Source: Candidatus Doudnabacteria bacterium (GTDB taxonomy: Bacteria; Patescibacteriota; Doudnabacteria; UBA920). From it: a stretch of 64,000 nucleotides of DNA. Both the position numbers and the translations under genes were made by a program. Shown piece after piece: positions 12,134-32,305 of this stretch. Position 1 is the stretch's first letter; each line of letters opens with the position of its first letter. Location: positions 91,965 to 155,964 of the forward strand of contig JARLHZ010000025.1 of the NCBI GenBank assembly GCA_031291995.1, given 5' to 3'. The notes beneath the pieces are model-generated. The model made no database searches, had not been told where the DNA came from, and saw only the letters and a program-made list of their open reading frames with translations.

Positions 12134-12146
12134 TTCGGACAAAACA

Positions 12147-12180
12147 AAACCCCTCCCGCTAAATCGGGAGGGGTTTTAAT
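12147..12180. terminator. Bidirectional intrinsic terminator between rpsA (+) and 12186..12830 (-)
   Basis: AAAACCCCTCCCG-CTAAAT-CGGGAGGGGTTTT. Confidence 0.75.
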
Positions 12181-12185
12181 ATGGA

Positions 12186-12830
12186 CTAATGTTTTTGTTC
12201 GCCGTCTTTGGATTCCATGGATGTTTCGGAAGCGGCCGCCGCGGTTTCGGTTGGTTTTTTCAAGCACATAAGCAGGATGACAATCAGCAGGTAGCTTAAT
12301 ATCCAGGAGGCGCCCAGGGCAATAAGTGAAATTTTGTTTAAGTTGGATTCGCGAATTTCAATTTCTTTTAAGGATCGGCCAACTAAAGCAAATCCGGGGG
12401 TAGCGCCGCCAAATTTGGTGACTACAACCGCTTCGCGAACTCCCGGCTTGGGTTGCCAGGTAATCCGGTCTTCGCCATGGAGATTTACGTAGTCGCTGAC
12501 ACCGGCCGGCATGCTGGGGATTTTTCCGTCAAGCACTACGGAACTGCCGATGGGTGTTCCGGTCGCGGTATAAATAATCAGGAAGCTGGACAGAGTATTG
12601 GCCAAGTCCTGTGTCGGATTGGGGGATACAATTTGATCGGGAGTGGCATTGCCGCTGGACACGGCCGAAGCAATGTCTTCCGCCACCTGGATTTGCGGGT
12701 CGTTGGCCGACATGCGATAATTTTGTTGCACCGCCAGGTTAACAAATCCGCACAAAATTAAGGCCACCAATCCGAGCGGCAGCCACAGAATAAAACCCTT
12801 ATACCATTTGTTCTTATTTTGGAACATCAT
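12186..12830 (-). CDS. Hypothetical bitopic membrane protein
   Basis: N- and C-terminal TM helices flanking a soluble domain; 214 aa. Confidence 0.5.
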   Translation of the reverse strand: MMFQNKNKWYKGFILWLPLGLVALILCGFVNLAVQQNYRMSANDPQIQVAEDIASAVSSGNATPDQIVSPNPTQDLANTLSSFLIIYTATGTPIGSSVVLDGKIPSMPAGVSDYVNLHGEDRITWQPKPGVREAVVVTKFGGATPGFALVGRSLKEIEIRESNLNKISLIALGASWILSYLLIVILLMCLKKPTETAAAASETSMESKDGEQKH

Positions 12831-12993
12831 GTGATTATTCGATAATTATAAATACGCTTTTAAGTATACACCGACTTTGGCGGTTTGGCAAAGTCGGCGC
12901 AAAATAAATCAATATGTCCCGCCATAATGGCGGGACATATTATTCGCGCAAGATTAGTTATCTACAAGCAAAACGGCAACAATAATAATGTAT

Positions 12994-13245
12994 TTATATT
13001 TTGCCGCCCCGAATGGCTCTGACAATCCATATTAGTACAACGGCTCCGAATATCGCGACCAGGAAACTGTAAAGATTAAAACCACTAACTCCCCCCTGGC
13101 CGAACAGGCTCATAATAAATCCGCCCAATATTGCGCCCACTATGCCGAGAACAATATCCATAAGCAGTCCGTCCCGGCTGCCCATAATGCTTGAGGCAAT
13201 CCACCCGGCCAATGCGCCAAAGATAATCCAAATTATTATACCCAT
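12994..13245 (-). CDS. GlsB/YeaQ/YmgE-family stress-response membrane protein
   Basis: 83 aa; GALAGWIASSIMG ... GIVGAILGGFI glycine-zipper TM pattern of this family. Confidence 0.8.
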   Translation of the reverse strand: MGIIIWIIFGALAGWIASSIMGSRDGLLMDIVLGIVGAILGGFIMSLFGQGGVSGFNLYSFLVAIFGAVVLIWIVRAIRGGKI

Positions 13246-13277
13246 AAAAGTAAGTTTAGTTTTTAATATTGCGAAGG

Positions 13278-13637
13278 CTATTTTTGCTCTTGGTTATCCA
13301 GCTTGGCCGCGGCTTCCGGCGTTGAAACGGTTTTGCCCATTAAAAATAATTTTATAATTGCCATGGCAATGAGCCAATATACAAGCATTGCTAACAATGT
13401 GGTCCATTCAAAAAGGCTGCCATTTACATCGGTAATTTTAAATACGCTTAAGAACGGAGCGGCAAACGGATAGGTAATGCCGTAAACAAAGCCGGTAAAT
13501 CCGGCGTAAGGATTGGCGCCAAAAAGTTTGAGCAAAAAACGGAAAGCCAGCAGCGCTTCCAGAAGTCCGGCAATATACCAGACAATTTGCGTGCCGCGAT
13601 ACAAAGGCTTGGTGCTTGGTGAGTTATATGAGTCCAT
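13278..13637 (-). CDS. YggT-family membrane protein
   Basis: 119 aa; two TM segments with YggT-like organisation. Confidence 0.45.
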   Translation of the reverse strand: MDSYNSPSTKPLYRGTQIVWYIAGLLEALLAFRFLLKLFGANPYAGFTGFVYGITYPFAAPFLSVFKITDVNGSLFEWTTLLAMLVYWLIAMAIIKLFLMGKTVSTPEAAAKLDNQEQK

Positions 13638-13724
13638 GAGATTTATATTGTTTAATTTTTTTTAGGACATGCGCGATTCGTCTTTTATTAAATATTTAGA
13701 TGAAACGCGTAAGTCCTATTTTTC

Positions 13725-14417
13725 TTATATTTCGGTGCCAAACACCACCAGATTATCGCTGTAGTGTCCGGAAGTTTTATTCCATGTCCCGCTGCAGGTA
13801 ATAATTCTTAAACCCGGGTAGGAAATCGCGCCATAAATTGCCTGGGTTGGAAATCGGTTTTGCGGGAATTTGGCCAGCGAGTCCACGCGGTAAGTGACCA
13901 CAGAGCCGTCCGCGCGGGTAATAAAAATTTTATCTCCCGGTTTGATATATTGCAGGCTGGCAAAAATCGCGGGACCCGACGCCGAATCCAGATGGCCGAC
14001 AATTATTGCCGCCCCGTTTTGCCCGGGTTTGGCTCCGTAAACAAACCAACCTACCCCCATATTATTTTTTGGTACGGCAATAGTGTGGTCGGGGTTTAGC
14101 CCTAAGGGTTCAAACGGAGCGCTAAGTTTTAAGCTGGGGATGCTGAGCAGGCTTGGATCCGGCGCGTTGACTGTTAAAACCTGTGGCGCCGGATGCGGTA
14201 AGAAAGCGGCGCTGGCCGGAGCCTCTTTGGTGATGTTTAATTGCAAGACCGAATTACTGGCCGCCAAGGCAAGAACCCCGACAATTAATCCGATAAAAAT
14301 CGATCTTACCGCCCAAACTGTCCAGCTTCTTTTAGAGCCCAAGACGTTTTGAACCAGCAGGTTTTCCGGAATATTATTTTTTTGAGAAGACATAGGAGAT
14401 TTTTCGGCTGGTGACAA
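13725..14417 (-). CDS. Sortase (class F-like transpeptidase)
   Basis: N-terminal TM anchor; IIVGHLDS (catalytic His), GDKIFI, LRIITCSG (TLXTC-type Cys motif), conserved Arg region. Confidence 0.8.
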   Translation of the reverse strand: MSPAEKSPMSSQKNNIPENLLVQNVLGSKRSWTVWAVRSIFIGLIVGVLALAASNSVLQLNITKEAPASAAFLPHPAPQVLTVNAPDPSLLSIPSLKLSAPFEPLGLNPDHTIAVPKNNMGVGWFVYGAKPGQNGAAIIVGHLDSASGPAIFASLQYIKPGDKIFITRADGSVVTYRVDSLAKFPQNRFPTQAIYGAISYPGLRIITCSGTWNKTSGHYSDNLVVFGTEI

Positions 14418-14480
14418 ATAAACCGGTAAAACTTAACACCAGTATAATGAATAAGATTTCCTCGGAGCTCTGCTCCGGGG

Positions 14481-15587
14481 TTATAGCAACTCCTTTGCAA
14501 CCTGCAGTTCATACCTCGCAGCTCTGCTGCGGGGTAATTGATTTTCCGCCAGCACCAAATAATTGAATGTAGAATTTTGGCCATGGCCGGCTGCGACTCC
14601 CCCGGTTGGCATATTGACCGTAGATACTACCACGGGAGCCATTGCTCCAAGCATGATGACATTGGAGAAGGTTGCACCGTTAGGGCAGGCCACAACAAAT
14701 GTCGCCGGGTCGCTTCCGACGCTGGACGGAAAAAATACCGACGAGTTGAAAGTGCTGTTGTTGTTGGTAAAGTTGTTGGATCCCGGTAAGTTGGTGATGG
14801 CGCCATTGCGTAACAAGCTAAAACTAACCGTGCCGTTTTGGTTAGTGCTTGCGTTGGCGCAGCTGCCCGAAACGGATGTGCTTTGACCCGGGAGAGGACC
14901 GGATCCGAACGCAAATAAGTTAACGGCCGGCGAACCAATATTGGTTGCGGAGGTAATTGTGTTGCCATTGGAGCAGGCTGCCTTAAAAGTTGCCTTGCCG
15001 ACCCCGGCGTTTTGGGGAATCGTTACCGAGTAGGAAAAAGTCGCGGTTTGGGTAAGGTTAGCTGTGCCTAAGGCGTAGTTGTTGCCGAAACTGTTTAGAG
15101 TTAGTACAGCGGTTCCGATGCCGTTGGATGGGCCGCACAATCCGGAAAGGTTAAAAATTCCGCCCTGGCTGGGGGTATAAGCCGGTAAGCCAAAAGAAGA
15201 GCTGGCCGGAACCGCGAAAGTCAATGTGGGGGAGTTAATAGTATCGCCGGTCCGGTTGCAGGTAGCCACCAGTGTGGCTGAACCGGCGCCGTATGAAGAA
15301 GGAAATGTAATAGTGCCGGTAAATGATCCGTTTGTATCGGTAGTCATAACGGTCGGCAAAGTGGTGGATATCCCGTTTTGGATTAAGGCCAAGCTAATGG
15401 CGCTATAGCTTGCGGCGGTACCGCAGCTGCCGGAGATATTGGTAGTGCCGCCCGATACCGGATAGACAGTGCCGACATTTAACATAGCGTTCAAAGTCGC
15501 GGCTCCCGCCAACAGAGGCAGGAATAACAACATCGCGGAAATAAGTATGATTTTTTTACCCGCGAATCGGGAAATAAAATTTTTCAT
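14481..15587 (-). CDS. Exported S/T/N/G-rich repetitive surface protein
   Basis: Signal peptide MKNFISRFAGKKIILISAMLLFLPLLAGAA (start chosen at internal ATG 15587 rather than ORF-track 15668); low-complexity body; no LPXTG or TM at predicted C-terminus. Confidence 0.55.
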   Translation of the reverse strand: MKNFISRFAGKKIILISAMLLFLPLLAGAATLNAMLNVGTVYPVSGGTTNISGSCGTAASYSAISLALIQNGISTTLPTVMTTDTNGSFTGTITFPSSYGAGSATLVATCNRTGDTINSPTLTFAVPASSSFGLPAYTPSQGGIFNLSGLCGPSNGIGTAVLTLNSFGNNYALGTANLTQTATFSYSVTIPQNAGVGKATFKAACSNGNTITSATNIGSPAVNLFAFGSGPLPGQSTSVSGSCANASTNQNGTVSFSLLRNGAITNLPGSNNFTNNNSTFNSSVFFPSSVGSDPATFVVACPNGATFSNVIMLGAMAPVVVSTVNMPTGGVAAGHGQNSTFNYLVLAENQLPRSRAARYELQVAKELL

Positions 15588-15759
15588 ATAAAATATTAAA
15601 TTAAGTATTAATCTATGGTGGGAAAGTATTTGCGGATTTATGTCTGCCTGAGGAGTGATAGGATACATATCGCTAACATATCTAAGCCTGGTTTCGTTTA
15701 ATTTTTCCGCCCGGAATTTTTTTTAACAGATTGGGCAATCCAATAGAAAAGTATATTGT

Positions 15760-16065
15760 TTAAAGCACTCCCTCCGAAATTGACCGGGCAATGCGGTTAT
15801 CGGCCCGAAGTTTGTAGTAAACTTTTTGTCCGGCCTTTTCTTTAATAAGCATATTGGCCTGCTCTAAAATTTTTAAATGTTGGGATGCAAGCGGCAGGGA
15901 AATTTTTAGGATTTTCGCTATGTCGCCGACGCTGATTCTGGACTGCTTGCCCAGCATTTCAAAAATCCGGTAGCGGTTGGTATCGCCGAGAATTTTAAAA
16001 ATCGCTCTTTGGTCGGTACCATTAAACGCGTTTCGGATTTTGTCAATTTGTTTGTCAGTCAGCAT
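15760..16065 (-). CDS. ArsR/SmtB-family transcriptional regulator
   Basis: 101 aa; HTH NRYRIFEMLGKQSRISVGDIAKILKISLPLASQHLKILEQANML. Confidence 0.8.
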   Translation of the reverse strand: MLTDKQIDKIRNAFNGTDQRAIFKILGDTNRYRIFEMLGKQSRISVGDIAKILKISLPLASQHLKILEQANMLIKEKAGQKVYYKLRADNRIARSISEGVL

Positions 16066-16175
16066 ATTGTTTATTAGTTAATAATTTTAGATTCAAATTG
16101 AGCCCTTAATTTGTTTTCCAAACTCAAACCGGCCGGAGCGGGATTCCACCGCCTTCCGGCCCGGGCTCATCCGAG

Positions 16176-16196
16176 GAACAAATTATAAATTTGTTC
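16176..16196. promoter_or_regulatory. Perfect palindrome GAACAAATT-ATA-AATTTGTTC upstream of arsR-like gene (candidate operator)
   Basis: 9-bp perfect inverted repeat with 3-nt spacer about 110 bp upstream of the ArsR start. Confidence 0.4.
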
Positions 16197-16670
16197 TGGA
16201 TGACACCAAGGATGAAGATGATACTAAAACAAAGTTACTCTAACTTTTCGGTACTTAACCGACTATGGGTCTCACGCCTTTTTATTAAAAAAACCTGAGT
16301 TTTTAAAAATAAAAGGCGTAAGGCCTAAAGGCAGTTAAACCATTGCTTATTTATTTAGCCATTAACCTCATTTGCTATTTTAAGCCTACTCCCAATTAGT
16401 AAGGCTGTATATAGTGGTAACCTCAGTTATACACTTGTTACGAGCTTTTTGGCTCCTTTAAGGCCGAATTGGATGTTTAAATACTTAATTAACTGCTTAA
16501 CTCTGCAACTAAGTGCTTCTTTACGCTTAGGTCTGGCGTAAATGTTCTAATATTGGCTTTTGGCTGTATACACAATCCATTATTGAGCCTATGCTTACTT
16601 TAGAGACCCTGTTTTGAGGTCCAACGAATTTTAATTCATCCTGCTTTGCCAAAGGCAGAGAAAGGAAAAT

Positions 16671-16754
16671 ATGAACGAAGATCCAAAGCCCACGCCGGCC
16701 ACGCCGCCGACAACCACTACCGAAACCAAACCCGCGGCTCCCGCGGTTGTGTAA
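16671..16754 (+). CDS. Small Pro/Thr-rich peptide ORF (27 codons: MNEDPKPTPATPPTTTTETKPAAPAVV)
   Basis: ATG preceded by AGAGAAAGGAAAAT (purine-rich RBS) and followed by an intrinsic terminator. Confidence 0.35.
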   Translation: MNEDPKPTPATPPTTTTETKPAAPAVV

Positions 16755-16757
16755 ATT

Positions 16758-16786
16758 AAAGCCCCTGCTAGAGCAGGGGCTTTTTG
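16758..16786 (+). terminator. Rho-independent terminator
   Basis: AAAGCCCCTGC-TAGA-GCAGGGGCTTTTT. Confidence 0.75.
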
Positions 16787-16809
16787 CTTATTATTTATCA
16801 GCTAATTTT

Positions 16810-17031
16810 ATGAATAAACAAAGCACGTTAAATTTAGCCAGAGAAATTTTTAAAATCAGGATCAGTTCCGCCAACGAAGGCGACGAGCAGGACGACGAAG
16901 TTCATAAGATGAAAATCAGGGGCATTAAATCTTATGACCCTTCGGTTATAGAAAAATGGTATTTGGAAGCCATAAAAACGGCGGAAATAATTATAAACCT
17001 GGAAGAACAATATTTAACCGCACCGAGTTAA
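16810..17031 (+). CDS. Hypothetical acidic protein (73 aa; start moved to internal ATG)
   Basis: ORF-track start 16747 lies inside the upstream terminator; internal ATG at 16810 taken instead. Confidence 0.3.
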   Translation: MNKQSTLNLAREIFKIRISSANEGDEQDDEVHKMKIRGIKSYDPSVIEKWYLEAIKTAEIIINLEEQYLTAPS

Positions 17032-17184
17032 AAAAAGAGTTTTAAAAACTTCTTGTCAGTTAGGTTTATCTAGAAGCATTTTGATATTTTTGATAAATAT
17101 TAATATCTTGTTAAGTCTGGGCGACTTTGGCGGTTTGGCAAAGCCGGTGTATAATAGGTTGAGAATAATTAACACTTATAATTT

Positions 17185-17460
17185 ATGGACAACAATATGC
17201 CCGGCGGTGCCGTACCGAGCGCCGGAGCCGGTAAGAAATTTTTGGTTTGGGTGAGTATTCTATTGGGTGTAGCATTTTTTGTAATCGGCTATATTTATGT
17301 GACCCATTCCGCGGGGAGTTTGCCTTCGTTTTTCCCCGGATACTCGGCTGGGGCGGCCGGTATCCACGCAAAACATGCCATTGCCTCATTTGTGGTGGGC
17401 ATAGCCTGTTTTATTTACGGTTGGTTTGCCTCCGGGCCAAAAGCGCCGCCTTCTACCTAA
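17185..17460 (+). CDS. Small two-TM membrane protein
   Basis: 91 aa with two hydrophobic helices. Confidence 0.4.
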   Translation: MDNNMPGGAVPSAGAGKKFLVWVSILLGVAFFVIGYIYVTHSAGSLPSFFPGYSAGAAGIHAKHAIASFVVGIACFIYGWFASGPKAPPST

Positions 17461-18313
17461 AATATAATATTATAGAGGAAATCACGCCGGCGGAAAAACA
17501 ATAGACCGCGAACGGCGTGATTTTATTTGTGCGGAAATATTTCATCAGGAATTTTACCGACAGGTAGGCGGCGACGGCGGCGGACAAAGCGCCAATAACA
17601 GTTGGTCCAACCAAGCCGCGGTTTTGCGTGGCTAATAATTCGGGAAGCTTTAAAACCGCGGCCGCGCCGATAATTGGCGTGGCTAAAAGGAAACTAAACT
17701 TGGCCGCGTCCTCGTGGGATAAGCCGACAATAAGGCCGCCCGCCATGGTACTGCCGCTGCGGGAAAAACCCGGAATGAGCGCGATTATTTGCGCCAATCC
17801 GACTTTGACGGATTGCGCCCAGCTTAGTTGGCCCAGGCGCTGGTAGGCTTGGTTCTGGTTTTGATCCTCCGGCGCTTTTCGCCTTAACAGTTCGGCGCCG
17901 TACAGCATCAACCCATTCAAAATTAACACGAACGCGGCAATGCGCGCTGAAGCAAACAGCATTTGAATTTTGTCTTTCAGCAGCAAACCTAAAATTCCGG
18001 CCGGAATAGTGCCCACAACTAACAGCCAGCCTAAGCGGGAGTAATAATCATCCCTCCGGATTTGTCTTTGCGCTAAAGACCGGCCCAGTCCCTTAATAAT
18101 TTGCCACCAATCTTTCCAAAAAAATCCGAGCAGCACAAGAGCCGTGGCAAAATGCGTGGCTACCAGGAAAGTTAAAAAAAACGGCTCGCCCTGGTTTAAG
18201 TTCCAGTTAAGCAGTTTGGGTAATATTACGGTGTGACCCAGGCTGGAAATTGGAAATAATTCCGAAATCCCCTGCGCGAGCCCAATTAGGATAGCCTGAT
18301 AGTATGTAAGCAT
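17453..18313 (-). CDS. uppP: Undecaprenyl-diphosphate phosphatase (BacA/UppP)
   Basis: LIGLAQGISELFPISSLGHTV hallmark and second conserved block PGFSRSGSTMAGGL. Confidence 0.9.
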   Translation of the reverse strand: MLTYYQAILIGLAQGISELFPISSLGHTVILPKLLNWNLNQGEPFFLTFLVATHFATALVLLGFFWKDWWQIIKGLGRSLAQRQIRRDDYYSRLGWLLVVGTIPAGILGLLLKDKIQMLFASARIAAFVLILNGLMLYGAELLRRKAPEDQNQNQAYQRLGQLSWAQSVKVGLAQIIALIPGFSRSGSTMAGGLIVGLSHEDAAKFSFLLATPIIGAAAVLKLPELLATQNRGLVGPTVIGALSAAVAAYLSVKFLMKYFRTNKITPFAVYCFSAGVISSIILYFR

Positions 18314-18647
18314 TTATCCGCCATATTTTGCCCTAAATTGCGGGGCAAATTTAAAATATTTTAACTTAACGTTACATGTTAGTTTTGTATCTCAATCCGC
18401 AAAATTTTGGCGGATGAATTGATTATATCACGATTCCGATATAAATTTAAATGTTTTGATCGTATCAGTTCACAAGCCTGAGTGAGGACGAAAATCCTGC
18501 CGATTTTCCGCAGCTTGGGGACTCCTCGTTCATCCGCCTCCGGCGGATATCACAACTCCTCCCAATCCTCGCTGCGGAAAATCGCCAGTATTTCCGTCCT
18601 CCCGGGTTTGTTCTGCTCAAGATTGTGAACTGTTAATTTTGATCGGG

Positions 18648-20228
18648 TTATACAAATCCGGGGAAAAAGTCGGTTTTGATGCTGTTCTTGCCGACACCCA
18701 TGTCCGACAGGGTTTTTTCAAAAGCCGCGACCATGCCGTGCGGCCCCGAGAGGTAAAATTTTCGCTCCTTATAATCCGGAACCTGTTCGGCAATCATTTT
18801 AGCGTCAACCGGGCCGACGTGCCCCTGCCACTGTGGAGGGACTTGCGAGGCATCGGTTAAAGTATAAATAACTTTTAAACCCAAATTTTCGACGGCCCGG
18901 TCAAAAATATCCGTGTAGACCACTTCGGAAATATTTTTATTACTGTAAAACATGATAATATCCCTGGGTTGATTCGTGTCAACCAGATATTTTATCATGC
19001 TGCGAAACGGGGTTACGCCGATGCCGCCGGCAATGAACACGCTTTTTTCCGCGGATTTTTTGGGTAAAGTAAAATCCCCGGCTAGCTGGCCGGCCAATAT
19101 TTTGTCGCCCGGTTCCATAGCCAGCATGGATTGTTTGTAACTGCTCGCCGGTTCGTAAAATTTTACGCCCATAATAATTTCCCGTTCCGTCGGCGCGGAA
19201 GCGATGGTAAAATAACGCCGGTTGCCGCGGTTGTCGGTTTTGTCGTGTTCCAGGGTCCATTCAAAATACTGGCCCGCGCGGAAATTCATTGCGGTATCCG
19301 CGGCAAAAACAAAATCATAAATGGTCGGAGCCAGTTTAATTTTTTCTTTTAGTGTCAGAAGCAGCTTTTTTTTGGGGCTGACTATGTAGGCAAAGACATT
19401 CCCGGCCAAAAGTGAGAGTTCCGGTGTGGAATATACCGCGCCCAGGTGGATTTGCGGCGCGAACATAAAACCCACCAGGCCCCCGTAAATTATTTGCAGG
19501 GATTTGGTCGGGGGCGTGGTCAGCGGTTCGGTCAGCATGACAAAGGCGAAAAAGAACAAGGGCGAATCGACAATAATTTTTTGCAAAGATCCGGCCAGTG
19601 GCAAGCCGCGCGCCAAATCAAAGCCTAGAATGGTTACGGTCGCCGCGATAAAAAAGCTAAAGACTAAATCAAATCTCCTGATTTTTCTGACAATTAAAAC
19701 GCCGCCGGCAAACACGAACGGCAGCATCCATAAAGTGCCAACCCACCAGCTGGCCGATTGGTTGATGGTAATGGCGGTTAAGGCTACGGCAAACGCCGCG
19801 GGGTTAAAAATATGTTTGCGGTTTATTGCAAAAATATACTTTGAAGTTTCCGACCAGATCGCGGCCCACGCGACAAAACCGAAATAGGCGGCATCCAGGG
19901 TTTTAATGGGAGTTATAATCAAAGCCAAAATGAGCGCGGTAATATATACCGATTCCACATTGGTCGGAACTTTAAAAATCCAGGCGGAAACTACATTTAC
20001 TATCCAGCATAAAAGTGTAATAAAAAATACGGAGTAAACCAGGCCGACCGGATTGTAAGGTAGAATCCCGAGCAAGCTTAAGGCCACAGCCACAGCCAAA
20101 AGGCCGAGCAGGTAATAGAGAACCAGTCGGTACATGGTTATTTTATTCAGGAAGTTGTCGATGGAATTGAGCATGTGCGGTTCGATTGGCGGGGTGGATT
20201 TTATATATGTTCGGAAAGTATATGCCAA
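18648..20228 (-). CDS. Membrane oxidoreductase: RnfD/NqrB-like polytopic domain fused to FNR-type FAD/NAD(P)-binding reductase domain
   Basis: N-terminal about 300 aa membrane domain with HIFNPAAFA and FVMLTEPLTTPPT (RnfD/NqrB-like FNPA and LTDPVT-like blocks); C-terminal RRYFTIASAP (RxYS FAD motif) and FIAGGIGVTPF (NAD(P) GGxGxxP). Confidence 0.6.
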   Translation of the reverse strand: MAYTFRTYIKSTPPIEPHMLNSIDNFLNKITMYRLVLYYLLGLLAVAVALSLLGILPYNPVGLVYSVFFITLLCWIVNVVSAWIFKVPTNVESVYITALILALIITPIKTLDAAYFGFVAWAAIWSETSKYIFAINRKHIFNPAAFAVALTAITINQSASWWVGTLWMLPFVFAGGVLIVRKIRRFDLVFSFFIAATVTILGFDLARGLPLAGSLQKIIVDSPLFFFAFVMLTEPLTTPPTKSLQIIYGGLVGFMFAPQIHLGAVYSTPELSLLAGNVFAYIVSPKKKLLLTLKEKIKLAPTIYDFVFAADTAMNFRAGQYFEWTLEHDKTDNRGNRRYFTIASAPTEREIIMGVKFYEPASSYKQSMLAMEPGDKILAGQLAGDFTLPKKSAEKSVFIAGGIGVTPFRSMIKYLVDTNQPRDIIMFYSNKNISEVVYTDIFDRAVENLGLKVIYTLTDASQVPPQWQGHVGPVDAKMIAEQVPDYKERKFYLSGPHGMVAAFEKTLSDMGVGKNSIKTDFFPGFV

Positions 20229-20238
20229 ATGTGGCTTG

Positions 20239-20871
20239 TTAGGTTTTGGCCTGTGCCAAGGCCGCGGCCAGGGATTGTTGGAAGGCCTGGCTGGTGTCCG
20301 TTGCGCCCGATACTATGTCCACTGAAGCGGATTGCGCGGCTATGGCTTCCTGTTTTAAGTATGGCATGGCCTGGCCGTTGATATAGCGGGAAGTACTGCG
20401 GTCGCTTGGGTATTGCAAAAATATGACATCCGTAATTTTACCGCCCGAAACCGTGACTTTAACCTGGACATTTCCATAGTACGCGTCGGCCACGGTTCCC
20501 GTGTACTGGCCGTCTGTATATTGCCCTTTTGGAGCGGGAGCCGCGGTTAATGTGGGTGTTGGCTGCGGGGCGGGCGCCGGCTTGGCGGTTAATGTGGGCG
20601 TGGGTTGGGCCGCTTGGCTGGTCGGAGTTGGAGCTGTGGCCGTTGGCGAAGGTGATTGGCTGCGGCCGGCCGGATTGTCGGGCGGATTATTGGATATTGG
20701 CGTTTGGGTGGAAATATTTGAATTCGGAGCCGTTGAAGTTGGAACAATCGCCGCCGGAGAAGTGACGGAGACATCCGCAAAAGCACCGGGGTTTTGACCC
20801 AACCGGTTTTGATAAACGGCGTAAAATGCAAAGCCGCCGATAAAAATTAAAGAATAAATAAATTTTTTCAT
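20239..20871 (-). CDS. Exported FMN-binding-domain protein with Pro/Thr/Ala-rich linker
   Basis: N-terminal TM/signal, PT-rich spacer, C-terminal FMN_bind-like domain with flavinylation-type motif DIVSGATDTSQAF. Confidence 0.65.
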   Translation of the reverse strand: MKKFIYSLIFIGGFAFYAVYQNRLGQNPGAFADVSVTSPAAIVPTSTAPNSNISTQTPISNNPPDNPAGRSQSPSPTATAPTPTSQAAQPTPTLTAKPAPAPQPTPTLTAAPAPKGQYTDGQYTGTVADAYYGNVQVKVTVSGGKITDVIFLQYPSDRSTSRYINGQAMPYLKQEAIAAQSASVDIVSGATDTSQAFQQSLAAALAQAKT

Positions 20872-20877
20872 GGCTGA

Positions 20878-21411
20878 TTACTCGCTGTCGTCGTCATTGT
20901 TACGATCGTTGGCGCCGGTGTATTGGCCGTCTATCCAACCGGCTTCGTTTGAATTGATATTAATTTTGTACCAGCCGTTTTTTGTGGCGGTATAAGCATG
21001 GGTCTCTCCGGGATAAACTTTGCCGATAACCGTGCCTGATATTGATGGCTGGTCTCTGACATTTAAATAACCCGTTGGCGTATTGGATATTTTAATATAT
21101 TTTGGCGCCGTGGTCGCCGCTGGTAACGGTGTTGCCTCTGCCACAGGTGTTGGCGCGGCTGCCGGGCCGGTCGTTGTTGAGGATTTTGCGGCCGGAGGCT
21201 GGGGCGAAACTTCCACCAGCGGTTGAATTTGTGATTCCGGGGATTGGACTGCTGTCCCCAATCCGCTGTCTTTTCCCCGGACATTTTCTTGCGCTTCGAT
21301 GACTTGGCCGGCGTTGAACAGTTTTTTGCTGCCGATTACTAAAATTGCCAGTCCCAGGATGGCAAAAATTAATTTAAGCCATGGAAGTTTTTTGGTGCGA
21401 GTATTTTTCAT
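20878..21411 (-). CDS. Exported SH3b-domain protein
   Basis: Signal/TM, low-complexity linker, C-terminal GYLNVRDQPSISGTVIGKVYPGE...GWYKI...GWI SH3_3-like pattern. Confidence 0.55.
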   Translation of the reverse strand: MKNTRTKKLPWLKLIFAILGLAILVIGSKKLFNAGQVIEAQENVRGKDSGLGTAVQSPESQIQPLVEVSPQPPAAKSSTTTGPAAAPTPVAEATPLPAATTAPKYIKISNTPTGYLNVRDQPSISGTVIGKVYPGETHAYTATKNGWYKININSNEAGWIDGQYTGANDRNNDDDSE

Positions 21412-21455
21412 GATCTTTGAATTTTCAGCTCATTTCCGGCTCGGCAAATTTAAGA

Positions 21456-21860
21456 TTAACTTTGAGCCTGGGATAAAGCGGAGGCCAGGGATTGTTGAAA
21501 AGCCTGGCTGGTCGCCGTGGCGCCCGAAACCCCGTTAACCTGCGCGGTTTGCGCGGCAATGGCTTCCCGTTGCAGGTACGGCATGGCCTGGCCGTTAATG
21601 CTTCTGGAAGTGGAACGGTCGTTGGGATACTGTAAAAAATTTACCCCCGACACTTTGCCGCTCGCAATCGTAACCTGAACCTGGACATTGCCATAATAGG
21701 CGTTTGTCACACCGCCGGTGTAAACGCCATTTTTATAGCTGACATTGGCGTTGGCCGGAGTTATAGTTGGGGCGGTGACCAAATGACCGCCAAAGTGCTG
21801 GTAAAAAATCCCGATTAAAATGGCAATGGCTACCGCGCCGGATAAAAGTATTTTTTTCAT
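21456..21860 (-). CDS. Exported FMN-binding-domain protein
   Basis: Signal peptide plus FMN_bind-like domain; motif NGVSGATATSQAF. Confidence 0.65.
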   Translation of the reverse strand: MKKILLSGAVAIAILIGIFYQHFGGHLVTAPTITPANANVSYKNGVYTGGVTNAYYGNVQVQVTIASGKVSGVNFLQYPNDRSTSRSINGQAMPYLQREAIAAQTAQVNGVSGATATSQAFQQSLASALSQAQS

Positions 21861-21939
21861 AATGTGGTGGTATTTACGCTGATTATATATATATCAGCAT
21901 ACAAACACCACATGAAGTAATTATGAAGCGTAAAATTGG

Positions 21940-23343
21940 CTATTGCGCGGGAACCAATAATTCTAAATGGTAAATATTGTTGTTGCTGGAGTTTAAGCCC
22001 TGATTTTTAATAATCCCCCGGAAGGTATATTTTTGGCGCGCGGCCAGTCCGGCAATATTCTGGCCGGTAACGGGCAAATCATACGGTCCGACCGCCCCGG
22101 CGGATTCGTCGGATATTATGGAATAACCATTCTGCTGTTCCAAAACATAACCGGTAATGGTGACCGTCTGGCCCAGATAATTCCCCGCATGCCTGCTGAC
22201 AGCGCCGACGCTCAAGGCCGGCGTTCCGGGTTTGGATAAAATAATATCCAGCCCGTCCGGGATATTTAATTGTCCATCGGCCGCGCCCGGTTTACGGGTT
22301 ACTCCATATTGCCAAACAATTTTGCCGGTCTGCTTGTTAATGACTATGACCCGATGGTTTAAATCATCATTGGCCAAAATATTCCCGTTAGGCAGTTCAA
22401 TGGCCAGCGATGGATGGTTTAATTTTACGTCCCCGGCCTGCCCGCTGAATTTCCAAATAATTTTTCCCTGTCGGCTAACCTCCACGATTTGTCCGGGATT
22501 GCTGTAATCGGAAATTAAAATATTTCCGGCCCGAGTCAGTTGCGGATCGGACGGGTATTTAACGGGCAAAGGCATGGTAAACACCGGCTGCCAATTTTGG
22601 TCCAGTTCCAGCAGATTCCTGCCCACAATATTACTAATGAAGGTATGTCCGTTAGGCAGAGGCGTGTCGCCATTGGGCTTATCCAGTTGGCTCAGGCCAT
22701 TGCCGCATTTGCCCGTTATGCCGTATTGGCGCACAATATTTTTGCCGGGCGCGATTTCCAAAATCCGGCAATTTTTTATGTCCGCGACGGTAACGTCACC
22801 GTTCGGGAGGCGATATGCGTCGTCCGGAGTGTTCAAATATCCCGTCCCGGCGCCGGGGTGTCCTGCTGTGCCGTAAGACCAGGTGACCTGCTTGCTGGCA
22901 TAATTAATAATCTGAATAACGTGGTATTCTTCCAGGTTGACGATAATGGAGTTGCCGTTGTCGGTAAAGAATGAGTCGTCGGCGCCCAGGCCGGGTTTGG
23001 GAAGACTGAACCGGTATTGCCAAATAATTTTTTTATCCGGCGTGACTTCAATCAGCCGGTTGTTTCCGCGGTCAGCTATCAGGACATTGTAGCCGCCTAA
23101 GGCCGAGGCGTCCTGCGGTTCCCCCTGAATATCCAGAGTGGTTACTGGGACTGATGTCGCGGCGGGAAGTTCCTCGTCGCCGTCAGCCGTTGGATCCTGG
23201 GATTCTTTGTCGCCGTCGCTGGCTCCCGCGCGGGACTGGCTAAACAGGAATGTTTGGTGCCCGCCGCGGGCAAGCAGTACTGTCCCGCCAAATATGACGC
23301 AGGCAAGCCCAATTATTCCGATAATAATATAAAATTTTCGCAT
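21940..23343 (-). CDS. Membrane-anchored beta-propeller repeat protein (NHL/ASST-like repeats)
   Basis: N-terminal TM; at least five repeats of the pattern D..N.R(I/L).E....GK(I/V)(I/V)W(Q/K)(Y/F). Confidence 0.5.
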   Translation of the reverse strand: MRKFYIIIGIIGLACVIFGGTVLLARGGHQTFLFSQSRAGASDGDKESQDPTADGDEELPAATSVPVTTLDIQGEPQDASALGGYNVLIADRGNNRLIEVTPDKKIIWQYRFSLPKPGLGADDSFFTDNGNSIIVNLEEYHVIQIINYASKQVTWSYGTAGHPGAGTGYLNTPDDAYRLPNGDVTVADIKNCRILEIAPGKNIVRQYGITGKCGNGLSQLDKPNGDTPLPNGHTFISNIVGRNLLELDQNWQPVFTMPLPVKYPSDPQLTRAGNILISDYSNPGQIVEVSRQGKIIWKFSGQAGDVKLNHPSLAIELPNGNILANDDLNHRVIVINKQTGKIVWQYGVTRKPGAADGQLNIPDGLDIILSKPGTPALSVGAVSRHAGNYLGQTVTITGYVLEQQNGYSIISDESAGAVGPYDLPVTGQNIAGLAARQKYTFRGIIKNQGLNSSNNNIYHLELLVPAQ

Positions 23344-23353
23344 GCGGCTGAAA

Positions 23354-24376
23354 TTAAAAATTATTTAAAGCCGGCAGGTTTATGGCAATAGTGGTGCCCG
23401 AAGACAGCCGGCTTCTCACGGTTATAAAACCGCCGTGGCCGTCGATTATGGCTTTAACAATCGATAGGCCCAGGCCGGTTCCTTGGCCGTGCTTGGACTG
23501 GTCGGTTTGGTAAAAACGTTCAAAAATAAGCGGCAGGTCACTTTCCGCGATGCCGATTCCGGTATCGGTAATGCTGATTTCCGCCCGGTTTTTGCCGGCG
23601 TTTGCGCCAATCCGCACCCGACCGCCGGGTTTGTTGTATTTGATGGCATTTTCTATAACATTTCCCAAAGCGTGTTCCAGAAAATGGCTGTTACCCAAAA
23701 TTTTTACCGGCGCGATTTCCTCCACGCTTAATTCCACTTGGCGGCTGTGGGAATAATTTTGGAATTTTGCGGCCGTGCCGACTATTAGCTGTTGTAAATC
23801 CAGAGGTAAAAAGTTTTGCCTGAACGTTATGTCTTCGGCTTTGGATAAATCCAGGAGCTGGCTGCTTAAATGGGTCAGGTTGCCTATCTCTTCCAAAACG
23901 CTGTCCAGGGTGTTTTTGACTTCCGGAGCTGCCGGAGTTTTTTGCCGGAGCAGAACCTCAATGTCCGTACGCATTACGGCAAGCGGAGTGCGCAGCTCGT
24001 GCGAAGCATCGGCCACAAAACGTTTTTGGCCTTCCAGAGTTTGCTTGATGGGTTTTAAAGTGTAGCCGGCAAACGAGTAACTGCTGAAAGCGGCAATCAG
24101 CAGTATTGTCCCGTCAATCGCGACGAGCAGCCAGGCCAGCCGTTCATGGGAATCTTCCAAAAAATTTTCTTCCTGCCCGGGTTCCGCCCGGATGTATTCA
24201 TGGAAGGAACGCTGGATTTGTCTTGTGGAAACAATATAAAAACTGATGCTAAAAAGCGTGACGATTACCAAAATAATCGCCATGTACCACAAGGTCAGTT
24301 TTATCCGCGCCCGATGGAAGGCGTCAGAATTCCAGGCGGTAGCCCAGGCCCCGGACGGTTTGGAGGTTTTTACCAT
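23354..24376 (-). CDS. Sensor histidine kinase
   Basis: Two TM, H-box HELRTPLAVM, N/G boxes NAIKYNKPGG, DTGIGI, GTGLGLSIV. Confidence 0.85.
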   Translation of the reverse strand: MVKTSKPSGAWATAWNSDAFHRARIKLTLWYMAIILVIVTLFSISFYIVSTRQIQRSFHEYIRAEPGQEENFLEDSHERLAWLLVAIDGTILLIAAFSSYSFAGYTLKPIKQTLEGQKRFVADASHELRTPLAVMRTDIEVLLRQKTPAAPEVKNTLDSVLEEIGNLTHLSSQLLDLSKAEDITFRQNFLPLDLQQLIVGTAAKFQNYSHSRQVELSVEEIAPVKILGNSHFLEHALGNVIENAIKYNKPGGRVRIGANAGKNRAEISITDTGIGIAESDLPLIFERFYQTDQSKHGQGTGLGLSIVKAIIDGHGGFITVRSRLSSGTTIAINLPALNNF

Positions 24377-24992
24377 AGTCTCCCAGTTTCTTTCTTAAAT
24401 TTTTAATATGCACATCAACTACGTTGCTAAATGAATCAAAGGAGAAATCCCAAACCGCCGCCAGGATTTGGTCCCGGGATAAGACTTGTCCGGGATGGCG
24501 CATAAAATATTCCAGCAGGCGGAGTTCCCTTAAGGTCAGGTTTAGCGGCTGTCCGCCAAGGGTCAGCTGTTTTTTGGCGTTATTTAAAATGAGCGGCCCG
24601 ACCAATAACGATTCCGACTGGGAAGTTTGCGGGCGGCGGGACAGGGCGCGAATCCTCGCCAGGAGCTCGGTAAATTCAAACGGTTTTATCAGGTAGTCGT
24701 CGGCGCCCGAATCCAAGCCCAGCACTTTGTCTTCCGTGGTATCTCTGGATGTCAGCATTAAAACAGGCGTAATAATATTGTCCGCGCGCCAGGCGGCGCA
24801 AACCGCGACGCCGTTTTTCCCCGGCAACATGACGTCCAAAATAACCAAATCATAAATGTCACGGCGGGTTTTGAGCCGGCGTTCCCCCGATTCCCCGTCA
24901 AATAATAAGTCTACCGCGTAGTTTTCCTGCTCCAGCCCGCGCTTGAGGGAATTAGCCAGTTTTGTGTTGTCTTCTATTACCAGGATTTTCAT
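24324..24992 (-). CDS. OmpR-family response regulator
   Basis: Receiver domain (DLVILDVMLPGKNG) plus winged-helix output (LTLRELRLLEYFMRHPGQVLSRDQIL). Confidence 0.85.
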   Translation of the reverse strand: MKILVIEDNTKLANSLKRGLEQENYAVDLLFDGESGERRLKTRRDIYDLVILDVMLPGKNGVAVCAAWRADNIITPVLMLTSRDTTEDKVLGLDSGADDYLIKPFEFTELLARIRALSRRPQTSQSESLLVGPLILNNAKKQLTLGGQPLNLTLRELRLLEYFMRHPGQVLSRDQILAAVWDFSFDSFSNVVDVHIKNLRKKLGDYGKNLQTVRGLGYRLEF

Positions 24993-25100
24993 TGTAATTA
25001 TAATATTATTTTAACATGAAGCGCCCGTGAAGTCTTCCCATAGCCGCCATAAAAAATCGCCCCGCGGGATGATTGTGTAATGGCGGCGGCTTGCCGGCAA

Positions 25101-26585
25101 TTATTTAAGGCCAATGATTATTTTTTCGGCTCGCGCCCGGGAAAAATTGAAGGATTGCCAGGAATGGGCACTTTGGTTGTTTTCCATTTGCATAAATATG
25201 TCGGCGGCTAAAGCGGGCAGGGTGTCTCCCCGCTTGTCGTTTAACTCCGGCATTTCTAGCAGTCGCGAAATTTCCGGGGCGGCGTCGGCCGATAAGGAGT
25301 AAAAATATGTCCCATCCAGCCTGCCGGATTTAGCGAATTGCGCGATGTTTTTTCGCGCGATAAACGCTTCCGGGTTAAACAGGTTAAAGACCGCGAAAAA
25401 AGCCAGCATGGACAAAAATATGCCAAAAATGAACGGCCGTGTTTCCATCCCCCCAATAATTTTATACCCAAGCCACAAAAATACCGCCGCAAGCCAAATT
25501 ATAAAGGCTTGCACTAAAATTCGAAGCAGAGTAAAGCCGTAAGCCTGCTCATAAACACTCAACCTTAAAAAAGCCGATGCCATAATGACCAGGGTTAATA
25601 CTATCAAGCAATTGCTCAAAATTTTAAACCGGCTTGCGTGAGCCCCCGATTTTTTTTCTATATATTTTTCCGCGACAAATATTAGCGCGAAAGTCATTAG
25701 AGCGATAACAACCAATTCTCCAAACCCTTTATGCGCGTATTCCGCGTAGGTGTAGCCCAGCGCGGCAATGGCGCCGTGTCCGCCGAACAGGTAGCGAATT
25801 TGGAACAAGACGAACGCCAGGAACAATACATTCAGCGTTCCGAACAAAATCCCGCCCTCAATATTGCCGAGCACGTAGCCGGAAGTTTCTTCCGGATTCG
25901 GCGCTGTTTCTTTGGAAGTGCTGTTTTCCAAAACATAAACATAAGCCCCCAGCCAAATAAACGCGATAAAAACCGCCCACCAAATTTGGGCTACCGCATC
26001 CGGCGAAAGGTTTACGTTAAGTTTGAATAATCCGGACACAAAATGGTTAAAAGCCAGATCGGCCGAAGACATTAGCACCAAAAATAACAAAGCAATCGGC
26101 AGGGTAATTAAGATGCCCTTGGTAACCTGGGAAGCCTTCCGGTACTCGATTGCGCCTTTTCTCACCGCTAACATCTTTACAATACTGCCAAAAGATTTGC
26201 CCAATATTTTTAACGGCAAGAGAAATGCGGTTTTTAAATAATCGGAAAACAAGCAGCTTTTTATGTTCCGTCCTGCCAAGTGATGCGACAGCAATAACAA
26301 CAGGCCAAAGGTAATAATCAAATTCCAAAACAGCAAAAATCCGCTGTCGCGTACCGCTACCATGCCGGAAAAAAATACTATTGGCACAATATACCATAGC
26401 GCAATCTTATTATAGCTGACTTTAAACGCGCGGAGTAAACTGAACAACATCAGAAGAAGTAAACAAACATAAATAAAAAAAGAAATGCCGACCTGTTTTT
26501 GGAAAAAAAAATAATCGAATATTAATCCGAGCGCCAAAGCCGCTGCCGCCACTGACCACAGGTTTTTTGAAGATAATGTTTGCAT
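25101..26585 (-). CDS. Large polytopic membrane protein of unknown function
   Basis: 494 aa, more than 10 predicted TM helices; upstream and co-directional with the TCS pair. Confidence 0.5.
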   Translation of the reverse strand: MQTLSSKNLWSVAAAALALGLIFDYFFFQKQVGISFFIYVCLLLLMLFSLLRAFKVSYNKIALWYIVPIVFFSGMVAVRDSGFLLFWNLIITFGLLLLLSHHLAGRNIKSCLFSDYLKTAFLLPLKILGKSFGSIVKMLAVRKGAIEYRKASQVTKGILITLPIALLFLVLMSSADLAFNHFVSGLFKLNVNLSPDAVAQIWWAVFIAFIWLGAYVYVLENSTSKETAPNPEETSGYVLGNIEGGILFGTLNVLFLAFVLFQIRYLFGGHGAIAALGYTYAEYAHKGFGELVVIALMTFALIFVAEKYIEKKSGAHASRFKILSNCLIVLTLVIMASAFLRLSVYEQAYGFTLLRILVQAFIIWLAAVFLWLGYKIIGGMETRPFIFGIFLSMLAFFAVFNLFNPEAFIARKNIAQFAKSGRLDGTYFYSLSADAAPEISRLLEMPELNDKRGDTLPALAADIFMQMENNQSAHSWQSFNFSRARAEKIIIGLK

Positions 26586-26626
26586 ATATAAGCATTATAC
26601 GCCCCTAAGGAGCCCAAGTAAAACAT

Positions 26627-26650
26627 CAAAAAAACCACTCTGGGTGGTTT
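26627..26650 (-). terminator. Intrinsic terminator (minus strand)
   Basis: AACCAC-CCAGA-GTGGTT followed by TTTTTTT on the minus strand. Confidence 0.5.
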
Positions 26651-26913
26651 TAGAAATAGTAGATGATATTATTTTTCCGCGAGCACTTTAATTTTTTCCA
26701 GCATCTTGTTCCAGCCGGGGACGAAGTCGTTATAAAATTCTGCCGGAAAATCCACGTGCACAGAACCCCCCGGCTCATAGTAGTCGGCTAAATCTATTTT
26801 GGCTCAGCAATTGCGTTCTTCATTTTCGTTTTTAAATTTTGGAACTTTGAGGCACTTTTTTATAAAGAGTCCATTCTCGCTTGCTTGCGGGCTTATGCTT
26901 ACACCAAAAGCAG

Positions 26914-27882
26914 TTACGCTCCTATCTTCCAAATATTTTTTTCCAAAAATGCTTCTATGGTTTGCCTGTTTGCTTTATTTATTAAATTAGAATGTGAAAG
27001 CTTGTTTTGTTTTGCGTAATCTGCAAGAGTAACAATTTTTTTACCTTCCAAATAAGCCAGCCGTTTATGGTAACTATTAGTAAGCGCCTTCCCGACAATT
27101 CCTTCCATAATTACAGAAGCACCTTTTCGTTGGAATTCTTCAAAGGCGTCATAATATTTTCTTCTGTCAATAAATTTTATATTAATCGGGACAAAACCTT
27201 CTCTAATAAGAAGATAATTATTAATTACCCTGCCAATGCGCCCATTGCCGTCTATGAACGGATGAGTATATTCGAAACTTAGATGTAATTTTGCAATTCG
27301 TTTTATTATACTTTCGTGGCTCGCGGCATTGTATTCTTCAAACATTTTTTCCAGATGCGGTAAAATTTCTTTTGGTCCCGGGGCTATGTGGCTGCCGACG
27401 CGCACGTACTCGTCGTCTTTTCTAAACCGGCCGGCAATTTCGTCGCGAATGTTGGAAATTAACATTTTATGAAGCGATAAAATTACGTCTAGCGTTAATT
27501 CCTGTTCTTTGGATTTTTTTTCAATATATTCCACAACCCGCGCCAAATTTTTGGCTTCAAAAATTTCACGTTCGGAAATAAATCTGTCTAAGTCTATTTG
27601 TAAAAGTATTTTTTCCGTTTCGTCCAAAGTCAACGTGCTGTTTTCTATGGCATTGGAGTTATATACCTGTTCCGGCACTTCTGCTTCCGAGATAAGTTTT
27701 AGCAAGGCCCCTTTGCCTGTGGCGGCCTTATAATATCTTTCCCTAAGGTGATTTATTCGTTTATAGACATTTAATATCTTAGCCATATTAAAAGTATATA
27801 CATATTTCACGGTTTTGTCAACATAACCGTGAAAAATGTATAAAAATCTTAATTTTTCACGGTTTTGAACAAAAACCGCCAA
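26914..27882 (-). CDS. Fic-family protein (class II-like, with inhibitory motif)
   Basis: Active-site HPFIDGNGRIGR; upstream SNAIENST matches (S/T)xxxE(G/N) inhibitory motif. Confidence 0.85.
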   Translation of the reverse strand: MAVFVQNREKLRFLYIFHGYVDKTVKYVYTFNMAKILNVYKRINHLRERYYKAATGKGALLKLISEAEVPEQVYNSNAIENSTLTLDETEKILLQIDLDRFISEREIFEAKNLARVVEYIEKKSKEQELTLDVILSLHKMLISNIRDEIAGRFRKDDEYVRVGSHIAPGPKEILPHLEKMFEEYNAASHESIIKRIAKLHLSFEYTHPFIDGNGRIGRVINNYLLIREGFVPINIKFIDRRKYYDAFEEFQRKGASVIMEGIVGKALTNSYHKRLAYLEGKKIVTLADYAKQNKLSHSNLINKANRQTIEAFLEKNIWKIGA

Positions 27883-28147
27883 AAAGGCGATTTTTTAAGC
27901 GAAATTTTGTAATTTTTATTCAGATGCTCCATCCGTACTAATAAAACAACCCAGCCGTTAAAGAAATTTTCCTATGCGCCACTCTAATGTCAGTCATTTT
28001 GTTGTGGTTTAATTTGCGACGTAGAGCGAGTCCGGCTGCTTGCAGCCGAGCGAGCCGAGGAGCTAATACAGGTTCCTCCGAGGAGCCTTTATTTTTTATC
28101 TGGTTCGTGCGGTATACAAGCAAACTGGGAAAATAGATATTAAAAAA

Positions 28148-29484: not shown

Positions 29485-29487
29485 TTT

Positions 29488-30027: not shown

Positions 30028-30044
30028 GGCTTTAACTTGAACCT

Positions 30045-31674: not shown

Positions 31675-31813
31675 TAGCTTGTGGATAAATTTTCAAATTC
31701 TTTACCTTAGGTTGCTTAAACAAGGAGTATTTCCTTTCGTCCGTTCACGGTTATTTCATTCCCGCTCGTTAAGCTATATTCAGGTATAGAAAATTAACTC
31801 AAGAAAGGAATTA

Positions 31814-32179: not shown

Positions 32180-32202
32180 TCATTAACTATCAAACACGCG
32201 CC

Positions 32203-32240: not shown

Positions 32241-32305
32241 TGCAAGCAAAAATTCACGAAATTTTCATCTGGAAAAATTATCCTTAACTAATAGGATAAC
32301 ATATA

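Follow-up and report, generated by a model that had tools for sequence, protein, structure and literature searches.

The window analysed here is a stretch of 64,000 nucleotides from a Candidatus Doudnabacteria bacterium (assembly GCA_031291995.1, contig JARLHZ010000025.1, positions 91,965 to 155,964), and the system in question is a minus-strand gene cassette built around a gene that fuses an NqrB/RnfD-like membrane subunit to an FNR-type flavin adenine dinucleotide (FAD)/NAD(P)H reductase. A sequence-only reading of this DNA had placed four open reading frames (ORFs) here on the minus strand, and all four are present: the fusion gene, two genes for exported FMN_bind proteins, which sit one and three genes upstream of it, and a gene for an SH3b-type protein between these two (Table 1). 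With a probability of about 0.75 we assign the locus to the NQR/RNF-like systems, a published class of flavinylation-associated transmembrane electron transfer. The assignment of these genes to one operon follows short intergenic distances and conserved gene order; consensus scans of 17300-26900 for promoters and terminators gave counts no better than shuffled sequence and were not used for this purpose.

The longest ORF of the fusion gene comprises 526 aa (18648-20228, minus strand) and opens with a TTG at 20228, in agreement with the length first proposed. However, homologues of the fusion protein are 495-508 aa long and share a conserved N-terminus, MLxxIDNFLNxIT, and the true start is therefore most likely the ATG at 20174, which predicts a protein of 508 aa; the TTG-initiated version was dropped as the real gene. 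In the C-terminal half, NAD_binding_1 was detected at residues 398-504 (57.4 bits, Pfam) together with a GGIGVTP motif, which bears out the FNR-type module of the sequence-only reading, but the FAD block given there as RxYS is in fact RRYFTIAS, an R-x-[F/Y]-[S/T] variant. This half of the protein falls among FNR-type reductases including NqrF (NCBIfam), and NqrF is also the best sequence match of the FNR domain among solved structures. No ferredoxin or Fe-S domain was found in the module, and the whole fusion protein has a single Cys and therefore no Fe-S site.

We compared the membrane domain, which carries FNPA and LTEPLTT blocks, with known RnfD/NqrB proteins. Pfam aligned NQR2_RnfD_RnfE to residues 168-282 of the fusion protein (27.5 bits, E 2.5e-6), and a profile of 19 N-terminal-domain sequences had a sole match in the PDB, RnfD of Azotobacter vinelandii (8ahx_D, E 0.0019), in which TDPVTSP aligns with the TEPLTTP of the fusion family. 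An AlphaFold2 model of the fusion protein (predicted local distance difference test score 86.2) agrees with this relationship. The [ST]GA[ST] motif is absent from all 90 fusion ORFs and is present in one of 36 aligned homologues, and the segment from FNPA to the conserved C-terminal block spans ~30 residues as against about 100 in RnfD, i.e. ~70 fewer. Thus, as judged from the missing motif and this shortened segment, the RnfD/NqrB-type flavinylated loop is lost from the membrane domain of the fusion protein.

Both upstream proteins matched FMN_bind in Pfam, with E 1.9e-10 for the 210-aa and 2.9e-10 for the 134-aa protein, hereafter the long- and the short-tether carrier. Their flavinylation motifs, DIVSGATDTSQAF in the former and NGVSGATATSQAF in the latter, are the only occurrences of [DN]xx[ST]GA[ST] among window ORFs of at least 70 aa. 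The closest solved structure for both carrier domains is SaFMN3-D2 (8p2a; E 4.4e-13 for the short-tether and 8.2e-15 for the long-tether carrier), and the carrier sequences VSGATATS and VSGATDTS align with its VSGATYTS. In the crystal, Thr72 of this motif carries flavin mononucleotide (FMN) as a phosphoester (PMC10339131), and the SGAT threonines that correspond to it, Thr115 of the short-tether and Thr191 of the long-tether carrier, are the predicted flavinylated residues. Furthermore, the motif is kept in 92 of 93 FMN_bind ORFs of related loci. The two exported SGAT-bearing proteins of the sequence-only reading are thereby borne out, as is the SH3b-type protein between them (SH3_3, E 2.4e-11, Pfam). 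Both carriers open with MKK and a hydrophobic segment, and a K/R-rich N-terminus followed by a hydrophobic segment is common to the carriers, the SH3b protein and an NHL-repeat propeller encoded further upstream, which is consistent with N-terminal anchoring of all four proteins outside the membrane, as in NqrC/RnfG.

The propeller gene belongs to the same gene string, starting 10 bp after a histidine kinase gene and ending 79 bp before the short-tether carrier gene. Its product is 100% identical to the NCBI hypothetical protein P4L74_04410 and matches the NHL domain of TRIM71 (E 3.9e-10); the family is large in Patescibacteria (1848 matches), and similarity is restricted to the NHL repeats. 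We considered the propeller as a terminal redox enzyme and rejected this role, given that it has no recognisable redox domain, shows only NHL-repeat similarity and is absent from three related loci (L005, L006 and L010).

Table 1. Positions of the cassette genes, domains and motifs in the window (residues of the fusion protein in 508-aa numbering)
Feature	Position	Strand	Description
Fusion gene	18648..20174	-	508 aa from ATG 20174; NqrB/RnfD-like membrane subunit + FNR-type FAD/NAD(P)H reductase
Cytoplasmic FNR-type module	18651..19370	-	about residues 269-508; FAD-binding barrel + NAD(P)H-binding domain
GGIGVTP	19008-19028		residues 383-389, NAD(P)H-binding domain
RRYFT	19206-19220		part of the FAD block
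NqrB/RnfD-like polytopic membrane domain	19371..20174	-	about residues 1-268
TEPLTT	19515-19532		residues 215-220, membrane domain
FNPA	19797-19808		residues 123-126, membrane domain
Spacer, FMN_bind-2 to fusion gene	20175..20238		64 bp
FMN_bind-2, long-tether carrier	20239..20871	-	210 aa; N-terminal anchor/signal, ~90-aa Pro/Thr/Ser/Ala/Gln-rich linker, FMN_bind with DIVSGAT
Thr191 codon of FMN_bind-2	20299-20301		predicted flavinylated residue
SH3b (SH3_3) protein	20878..21411	-	177 aa; N-terminal transmembrane anchor, Pro/Ala/Thr-rich linker, C-terminal bacterial SH3 domain
FMN_bind-1, short-tether carrier	21456..21860	-	134 aa; N-terminal anchor, ~15-aa linker, FMN_bind with NGVSGAT
Thr115 codon of FMN_bind-1	21516-21518		predicted flavinylated residue
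NHL-repeat beta-propeller protein	21940..23343	-	467 aa; N-terminally anchored, accessory
HisKA/HATPase_c kinase	23354-24376	-	two transmembrane segments; two-component system with the 24324-24992 regulator
OmpR-type response regulator	24324-24992	-	head of cassette

These features agree with a class of gene cluster that is already described. NQR/RNF-like systems were introduced as flavinylation-associated clusters encoding a protein with an N-terminal PF03116 and a C-terminal PF00175 domain, where a cluster counts as flavinylation-associated if it lies within five genes of a gene for ApbE, FMN_bind, DUF3570 or DUF2271 with a signal peptide or lipidation site; their hosts are mainly Actinobacteria and the candidate phyla radiation (CPR), and one-way electron transfer from NAD(P)H to the outside was proposed for them (Méheust et al. 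2021, eLife 10:e66878, PMC8238504). An NQR/RNF-like complex of Ktedonobacter racemifer was later modelled, in which the NqrB/RnfD-like subunit lacks a flavinylation site and, according to the proposal, the covalent FMN of an NqrC/RnfG-like partner reaches a pocket of this subunit in which flavin binds non-covalently (Huang et al. 2024, PMC10979944). At our locus PF03116 is N-terminal, PF00175 is C-terminal and an FMN_bind gene lies within five genes; likewise, the RnfD-like domain has no flavinylation motif and is accompanied by an NqrC/RnfG-like anchored partner with an ApbE-type motif. An apbE gene within the cluster, which is typical of NQR/RNF-like systems though not formally part of their definition, is missing. 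Homologues of equal length number at least 7999 in the protein collection, and in thousands of genomes the fusion keeps a constant architecture of about 505-510 aa. Among genomes chosen to represent species, the first 600 pattern matches include 594 that encode a relative. At least 594 species-level genomes have the system, mostly from Chloroflexota and various Patescibacteria classes; the nearest species-level genome is a Doudnabacteria bin. Thus, the architecture is already known, and the locus is an ordinary member of a class defined purely by bioinformatics, whose name a full-text search found in Méheust 2021 and Huang 2024 and in no other paper.

In the mechanism that we propose, NAD(P)H would reduce FAD on the cytoplasmic side and electrons would traverse the membrane via the NqrB/RnfD-like domain, probably by way of a flavin bound non-covalently where NqrB has its pocket for FMN or riboflavin, to arrive at the covalent FMN of a carrier docked on the outer face, which would then reduce an extracytoplasmic acceptor. 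The short-tether carrier, with its linker of ~15 aa, would serve the membrane subunit and the long-tether carrier (~90 aa) would relay electrons outward through the wall, with the SH3b protein anchoring the assembly to the wall and the two-component system controlling expression; the roles of the carriers and of the SH3b protein are assigned from tether lengths and conserved gene order. In this organism, in which neither a respiratory chain nor quinones are expected, the module may be an electron sink that regenerates NAD(P)+, or else a reductase that acts outside the cell (e.g. on iron). SaFMN3 has a potential of -184 mV and reacts with O2 (PMC10339131), and outward flow from NAD(P)H is therefore thermodynamically reasonable.

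We also compared the cassette with related loci (designated by L numbers). In relatives whose fusion protein is 78-81% identical, the gene order is response regulator, histidine kinase, NHL propeller (in some), FMN_bind protein of ~135 aa, SH3b protein, FMN_bind protein of ~205-250 aa, apbE of 240 aa (in some) and fusion gene. The two-component system is kept upstream in L002, L003, L006 and L010, and the SH3b gene between the two FMN_bind genes is conserved in the Doudnabacteria-like clade. Short- and long-tether carriers form separate orthologous clades, with linkers of 15-20 aa in the short form and of 84-132 aa, rich in Pro/Thr/Ser/Ala/Gln, in the long form, and where a locus has a single carrier it is usually the long-tethered one. 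A similar pair occurs in an independent set of Levyibacteriota-type loci (L033, L064 and L068) as FMN_bind proteins of 145-147 aa and 186-193 aa, with apbE between the two genes in L033 and L068 and missing in L064. In a Peregrinibacteria lineage (L009/L012) whose fusion protein is only 62% identical, genes for a homologous NHL propeller (365 aa) and an SH3_3 protein (134 aa) closely follow the fusion gene (9985-11552) and are encoded on the other strand, and the association of propeller and SH3b protein with the module therefore recurs outside the Doudnabacteria-like clade. In the sample used for gene linkage, 64 species-level loci with at least 3 kb of upstream sequence, scanned with hidden Markov models (HMMs) made for this analysis, 61 loci have FMN_bind no more than 3.5 kb away from the fusion gene. 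Clustering of the genes around 86 loci showed recurrent neighbours in 7-21 loci each, namely MacB-type ABC exporters, HlyD-like proteins, ECF sigma factors, two-component systems and DUF5666, and no conserved redox enzyme or acceptor among them; Nramp genes lie near two loci. In five loci, fused glucose-6-phosphate dehydrogenase / 6-phosphogluconate dehydrogenase genes lie within 6 kb of the fusion gene (e.g. L022, 5958-8363), and in L008 pentose-phosphate genes follow it (10721-17536); such neighbours could hint at NADPH as the electron donor.

These tether lengths invite a further and doubtful proposal, for which we would give rather poor odds: the two-subunit module may have grown into a flavin relay that spans the wall and needs no quinone, both in Doudnabacteria-like Patescibacteria and, independently, in lineages of the Levyibacteriota type. 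The short-tether carrier would dock on the membrane subunit and pass its electrons on to the other carrier, which is borne on a Pro/Thr-rich tether of ~90-130 residues and would be positioned by the SH3b wall-binding protein. If true, an episymbiont that has no respiratory chain could in this way unload electrons from NAD(P)H onto an acceptor outside the cell or onto a host surface.

Several points weigh against membership in the NQR/RNF-like class as a working electron-transfer module. The assignment of the membrane domain to the NqrB/RnfD fold rests on a predicted structure, the sequence evidence by itself being thin: the Pfam score of 27.5 bits is marginal, 0.2 below the gathering score of 27.7, and the alignment spans positions 175-285 of the 296 in the model, the last third alone. 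In Na+-NQR, the transmembrane electron step is made by the Fe-S centre of NqrD/E; the fusion protein has no such centre to carry electrons from FAD to the outer face. None of the cassette genes encodes an acceptor enzyme or a metal transporter or is related to quinones. In Pfam scans, which covered essentially all window ORFs of at least 150 aa, PF02424 was absent, and when ApbE of L006 was used as query against a collection of 5.8 billion proteins, no copy from the contig of this metagenome-assembled genome was among the best 120 of at least 8000 matches, which leaves room for a divergent ApbE or one on another contig; covalent flavinylation of the carriers in this organism is thus a prediction from their motifs. 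Finally, the literature searched holds no experimental characterisation of any NQR/RNF-like member, and electron donor, direction, cofactors and acceptor are inferred for the class as a whole.

The missing apbE bears most directly on whether the module works in this organism. An HMM built from 78 cluster-encoded ApbE ORFs found no match among window ORFs of at least 70 aa, and together with the Pfam scans this upholds the earlier statement that the window has no ApbE-type flavin transferase. Of the 64 species-level loci, 60 (about 94%) have ApbE no more than 3.5 kb from the fusion gene, 50 of the 64 have it immediately upstream, and only four have none within 10 kb. In L002, L005 and L006, the long-tether carrier gene is separated from the fusion gene by apbE (240 aa), and blastn places window position 20238 opposite position 4400 of L006 and window position 20159 opposite 5165, so that 78 bp here face 765 bp there. 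Thus, apbE is cleanly absent at the position used by close relatives, and flavinylation would have to be carried out by an ApbE whose gene lies at another place in the genome. One explanation for this absence, which we judge unlikely, is that the cassette is decaying in this genome, i.e. that apbE was deleted, the carriers are not flavinylated and the module is non-functional. A clean gap where relatives with a 79-81% identical fusion protein have apbE, the strong linkage of apbE across the family and the lack of a relocated copy among the best ApbE matches would all fit such decay. However, all cassette ORFs are intact, the SGAT motifs are preserved, and non-synonymous divergence (pN 0.11-0.26) lies far below saturated synonymous divergence (pS about 0.7) for the fusion and both carrier genes, including in comparison with L010, which has no apbE; judged by these intact ORFs and divergence values, the cassette is not decaying. 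Furthermore, L010, L064 and L070 also lack apbE and yet retain their FMN_bind genes. The window and L010 (L010/P0008) are not sisters in a neighbour-joining tree, which has no bootstrap, and this, together with L064, suggests repeated loss of apbE from the cluster. Repeated, tolerated loss is what would be expected if a second ApbE acts in trans, and could mean that flavin is loaded in trans or in another way.

Other explanations assign the same genes to a different task. The locus would be a fragment of a canonical ion-pumping Rnf or Na+-NQR complex if the fusion protein were a true RnfD/NqrB that partners with other subunits, and homology and fold do match RnfD/NqrB and NqrF, while some NCBI homologues bear names such as 'RnfABCDGE type electron transport complex subunit D'. 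However, window ORFs of at least 150 aa and the gene tables of relatives showed none of the families RnfA/E, RnfB, RnfC and NqrA/D/E, the flavinylated RnfD/NqrB loop is deleted with no [ST]GA[ST] left, the NqrF-like part has no 2Fe-2S domain and the protein a single Cys, and the fixed fusion architecture in thousands of genomes fits poorly with a fragment; a canonical complex is thus very improbable. The same hardware could instead have the specific role of an assimilatory metal (Fe3+) reductase, feeding a transporter with reduced metal, and not that of a general electron sink. This we consider improbable, since no metal transporter lies in or near the cassette in the window and the commonest neighbours in the 86 loci, listed above, are not metal transporters. 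Most improbable of all is inward electron flow, from an external donor via the carriers to NAD(P)+, or a membrane domain that acts mainly as a transporter regulated by the FNR domain; the reason to raise the latter is that the NqrB/RnfD fold is related to Amt and urea channels. We therefore retain the NQR/RNF-like module with presumed outward flow as the preferred reading.

Further features of the window were recorded alongside the cassette. Genes at 1815-4025 encode a RibD_C/DHFR-like reductase (1815-2333, minus strand), a Vut_1 putative vitamin uptake transporter (2373-3125, plus strand) and a CofE-type F420-0:gamma-glutamyl-ligase-like protein (3288-4025, minus strand), a cluster that might bear on flavin/deazaflavin supply. 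In relatives (L010, L002) the cassette is followed on the same strand by genes for PAP2_C, NAGPA, a further protein, a VTT-domain protein and GT2; in the window, NAGPA (32306-33475), VTT (36497-37033) and PAP2_C (37033-37680) are found on the opposite strand, 7-13 kb upstream of the response-regulator gene at the head of the cassette, and between them and the cassette lie DUF4153, a Fic gene, a DDE transposase (28237-29448), a truncated MFS gene (29467-30027) and a second two-component system (30045-31674). The arrangement at 26914-38247 looks like an inversion associated with an insertion sequence beside the cassette. Two paralogous membrane proteins with four DUF347 repeats each (35342-36160 and 38244-39020, both plus strand) flank the VTT/PAP2_C/PAP2 genes. 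A sortase gene (13725-14417, minus strand) lies directly downstream of a gene for a 395-aa Ser/Thr/Gly/Asn-rich repetitive secreted-type protein with a weak Nis1-family match (14481-15668, minus strand), which may be a sortase substrate. A tRNA-Ile with anticodon TAT (UAU; 4815-4891, plus strand), uncommon in bacteria, would read AUA directly without a lysidine-modified CAU tRNA. Finally, a type I restriction-modification locus comprises hsdR (51360-54323), hsdS (55208-56521) and hsdM (59002-60996) together with a DUF3800 protein, an unassigned 409-aa ORF (56503-57732) and a Fic gene (61009-62145). A DUF3800-V RNA motif (58852-58947, plus strand; 57.7 bits against a gathering score of 37.4, Rfam) lies between an NYN-domain gene and hsdM, on the strand opposite to all genes of this locus; the genes at 54542-55207 and 58070-58834 (both minus strand) are listed with it.

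The sequence-only reading had described a minimal flavin-based transmembrane electron-transfer module. Its domain elements are upheld, and on the two points by which it could have fallen the membrane domain is found related to RnfD/NqrB and the carriers retain the flavinylated Thr; the class itself, however, had already been defined by Méheust 2021 and Huang 2024. The locus is thus correctly filed as an NQR/RNF-like module, being neither a partial Rnf complex nor a new invention, and as such would provide one of few candidate routes for NAD(P)H electrons across the membrane in Patescibacteria expected to lack respiratory chains and quinones. Our comparison adds that in most lineages a single carrier is borne on a long, flexible tether, that two lineages split the carrier job between short- and long-tether paralogues, and that apbE, though almost always in the cluster, was apparently lost from it several times while the carriers showed no decay. 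These details leave the view of the family as it was, but could guide the choice of a member for a first biochemical reconstitution.

Compared with the published NQR/RNF-like systems, the locus has the same PF03116 and PF00175 fusion, the same adjacent anchored FMN_bind partner with SGAT, the same loss of the flavinylation Thr from the membrane subunit and a host from CPR/Patescibacteria, a group named in the published list. In contrast to the published clusters, which have 'only two apparent subunits' and usually apbE, it combines two carrier paralogues, short- and long-tethered, with an intervening SH3b protein and, in the same gene string, an NHL propeller and a two-component system, and it has no apbE. 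It differs more deeply from Na+-NQR and Rnf, having no NqrA/D/E, RnfA/B/C/E or Fe-S centres, no covalent FMN site in its RnfD-like domain and no evident quinone or ferredoxin site; whereas these complexes use a semicircular, ion-pumping path, electron flow through the module is presumed to be one-way and outward.

The flavin-based extracellular electron transfer of Listeria monocytogenes is similar in that, in a monoderm cell, NADH-derived electrons are passed to surface-tethered FMN_bind proteins flavinylated by an ApbE-type enzyme. That pathway uses the type-II NADH dehydrogenase Ndh2, a demethylmenaquinone pool, EetA/B, PplA and FmnB, and scans of the 64-kb window found no families for a type-II NADH dehydrogenase, EetA/EetB or demethylmenaquinone synthesis; unlike in Listeria, the fusion protein would join NAD(P)H to the carrier as a single protein without a quinone. 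The closest solved relatives of the carriers, SaFMN3 and CbFMN4 (Tong et al. 2023, PDB 8P2A/8P2B), share the conserved Thr72 and the contact residues G70 and T74, but have three or four tandem domains per chain, whereas the window encodes two single-domain proteins with different tethers. Finally, NOX/FRE-type and MsrQ-like/PepSY-like PF00175 fusions resemble the fusion protein in that a membrane conduit for electrons is joined to an FNR module in the cytoplasm, with NAD(P)H as the source; their conduits, however, are di-haem helical bundles, whereas the conduit proposed here is a haem-free NqrB/RnfD fold that presumably uses flavin.

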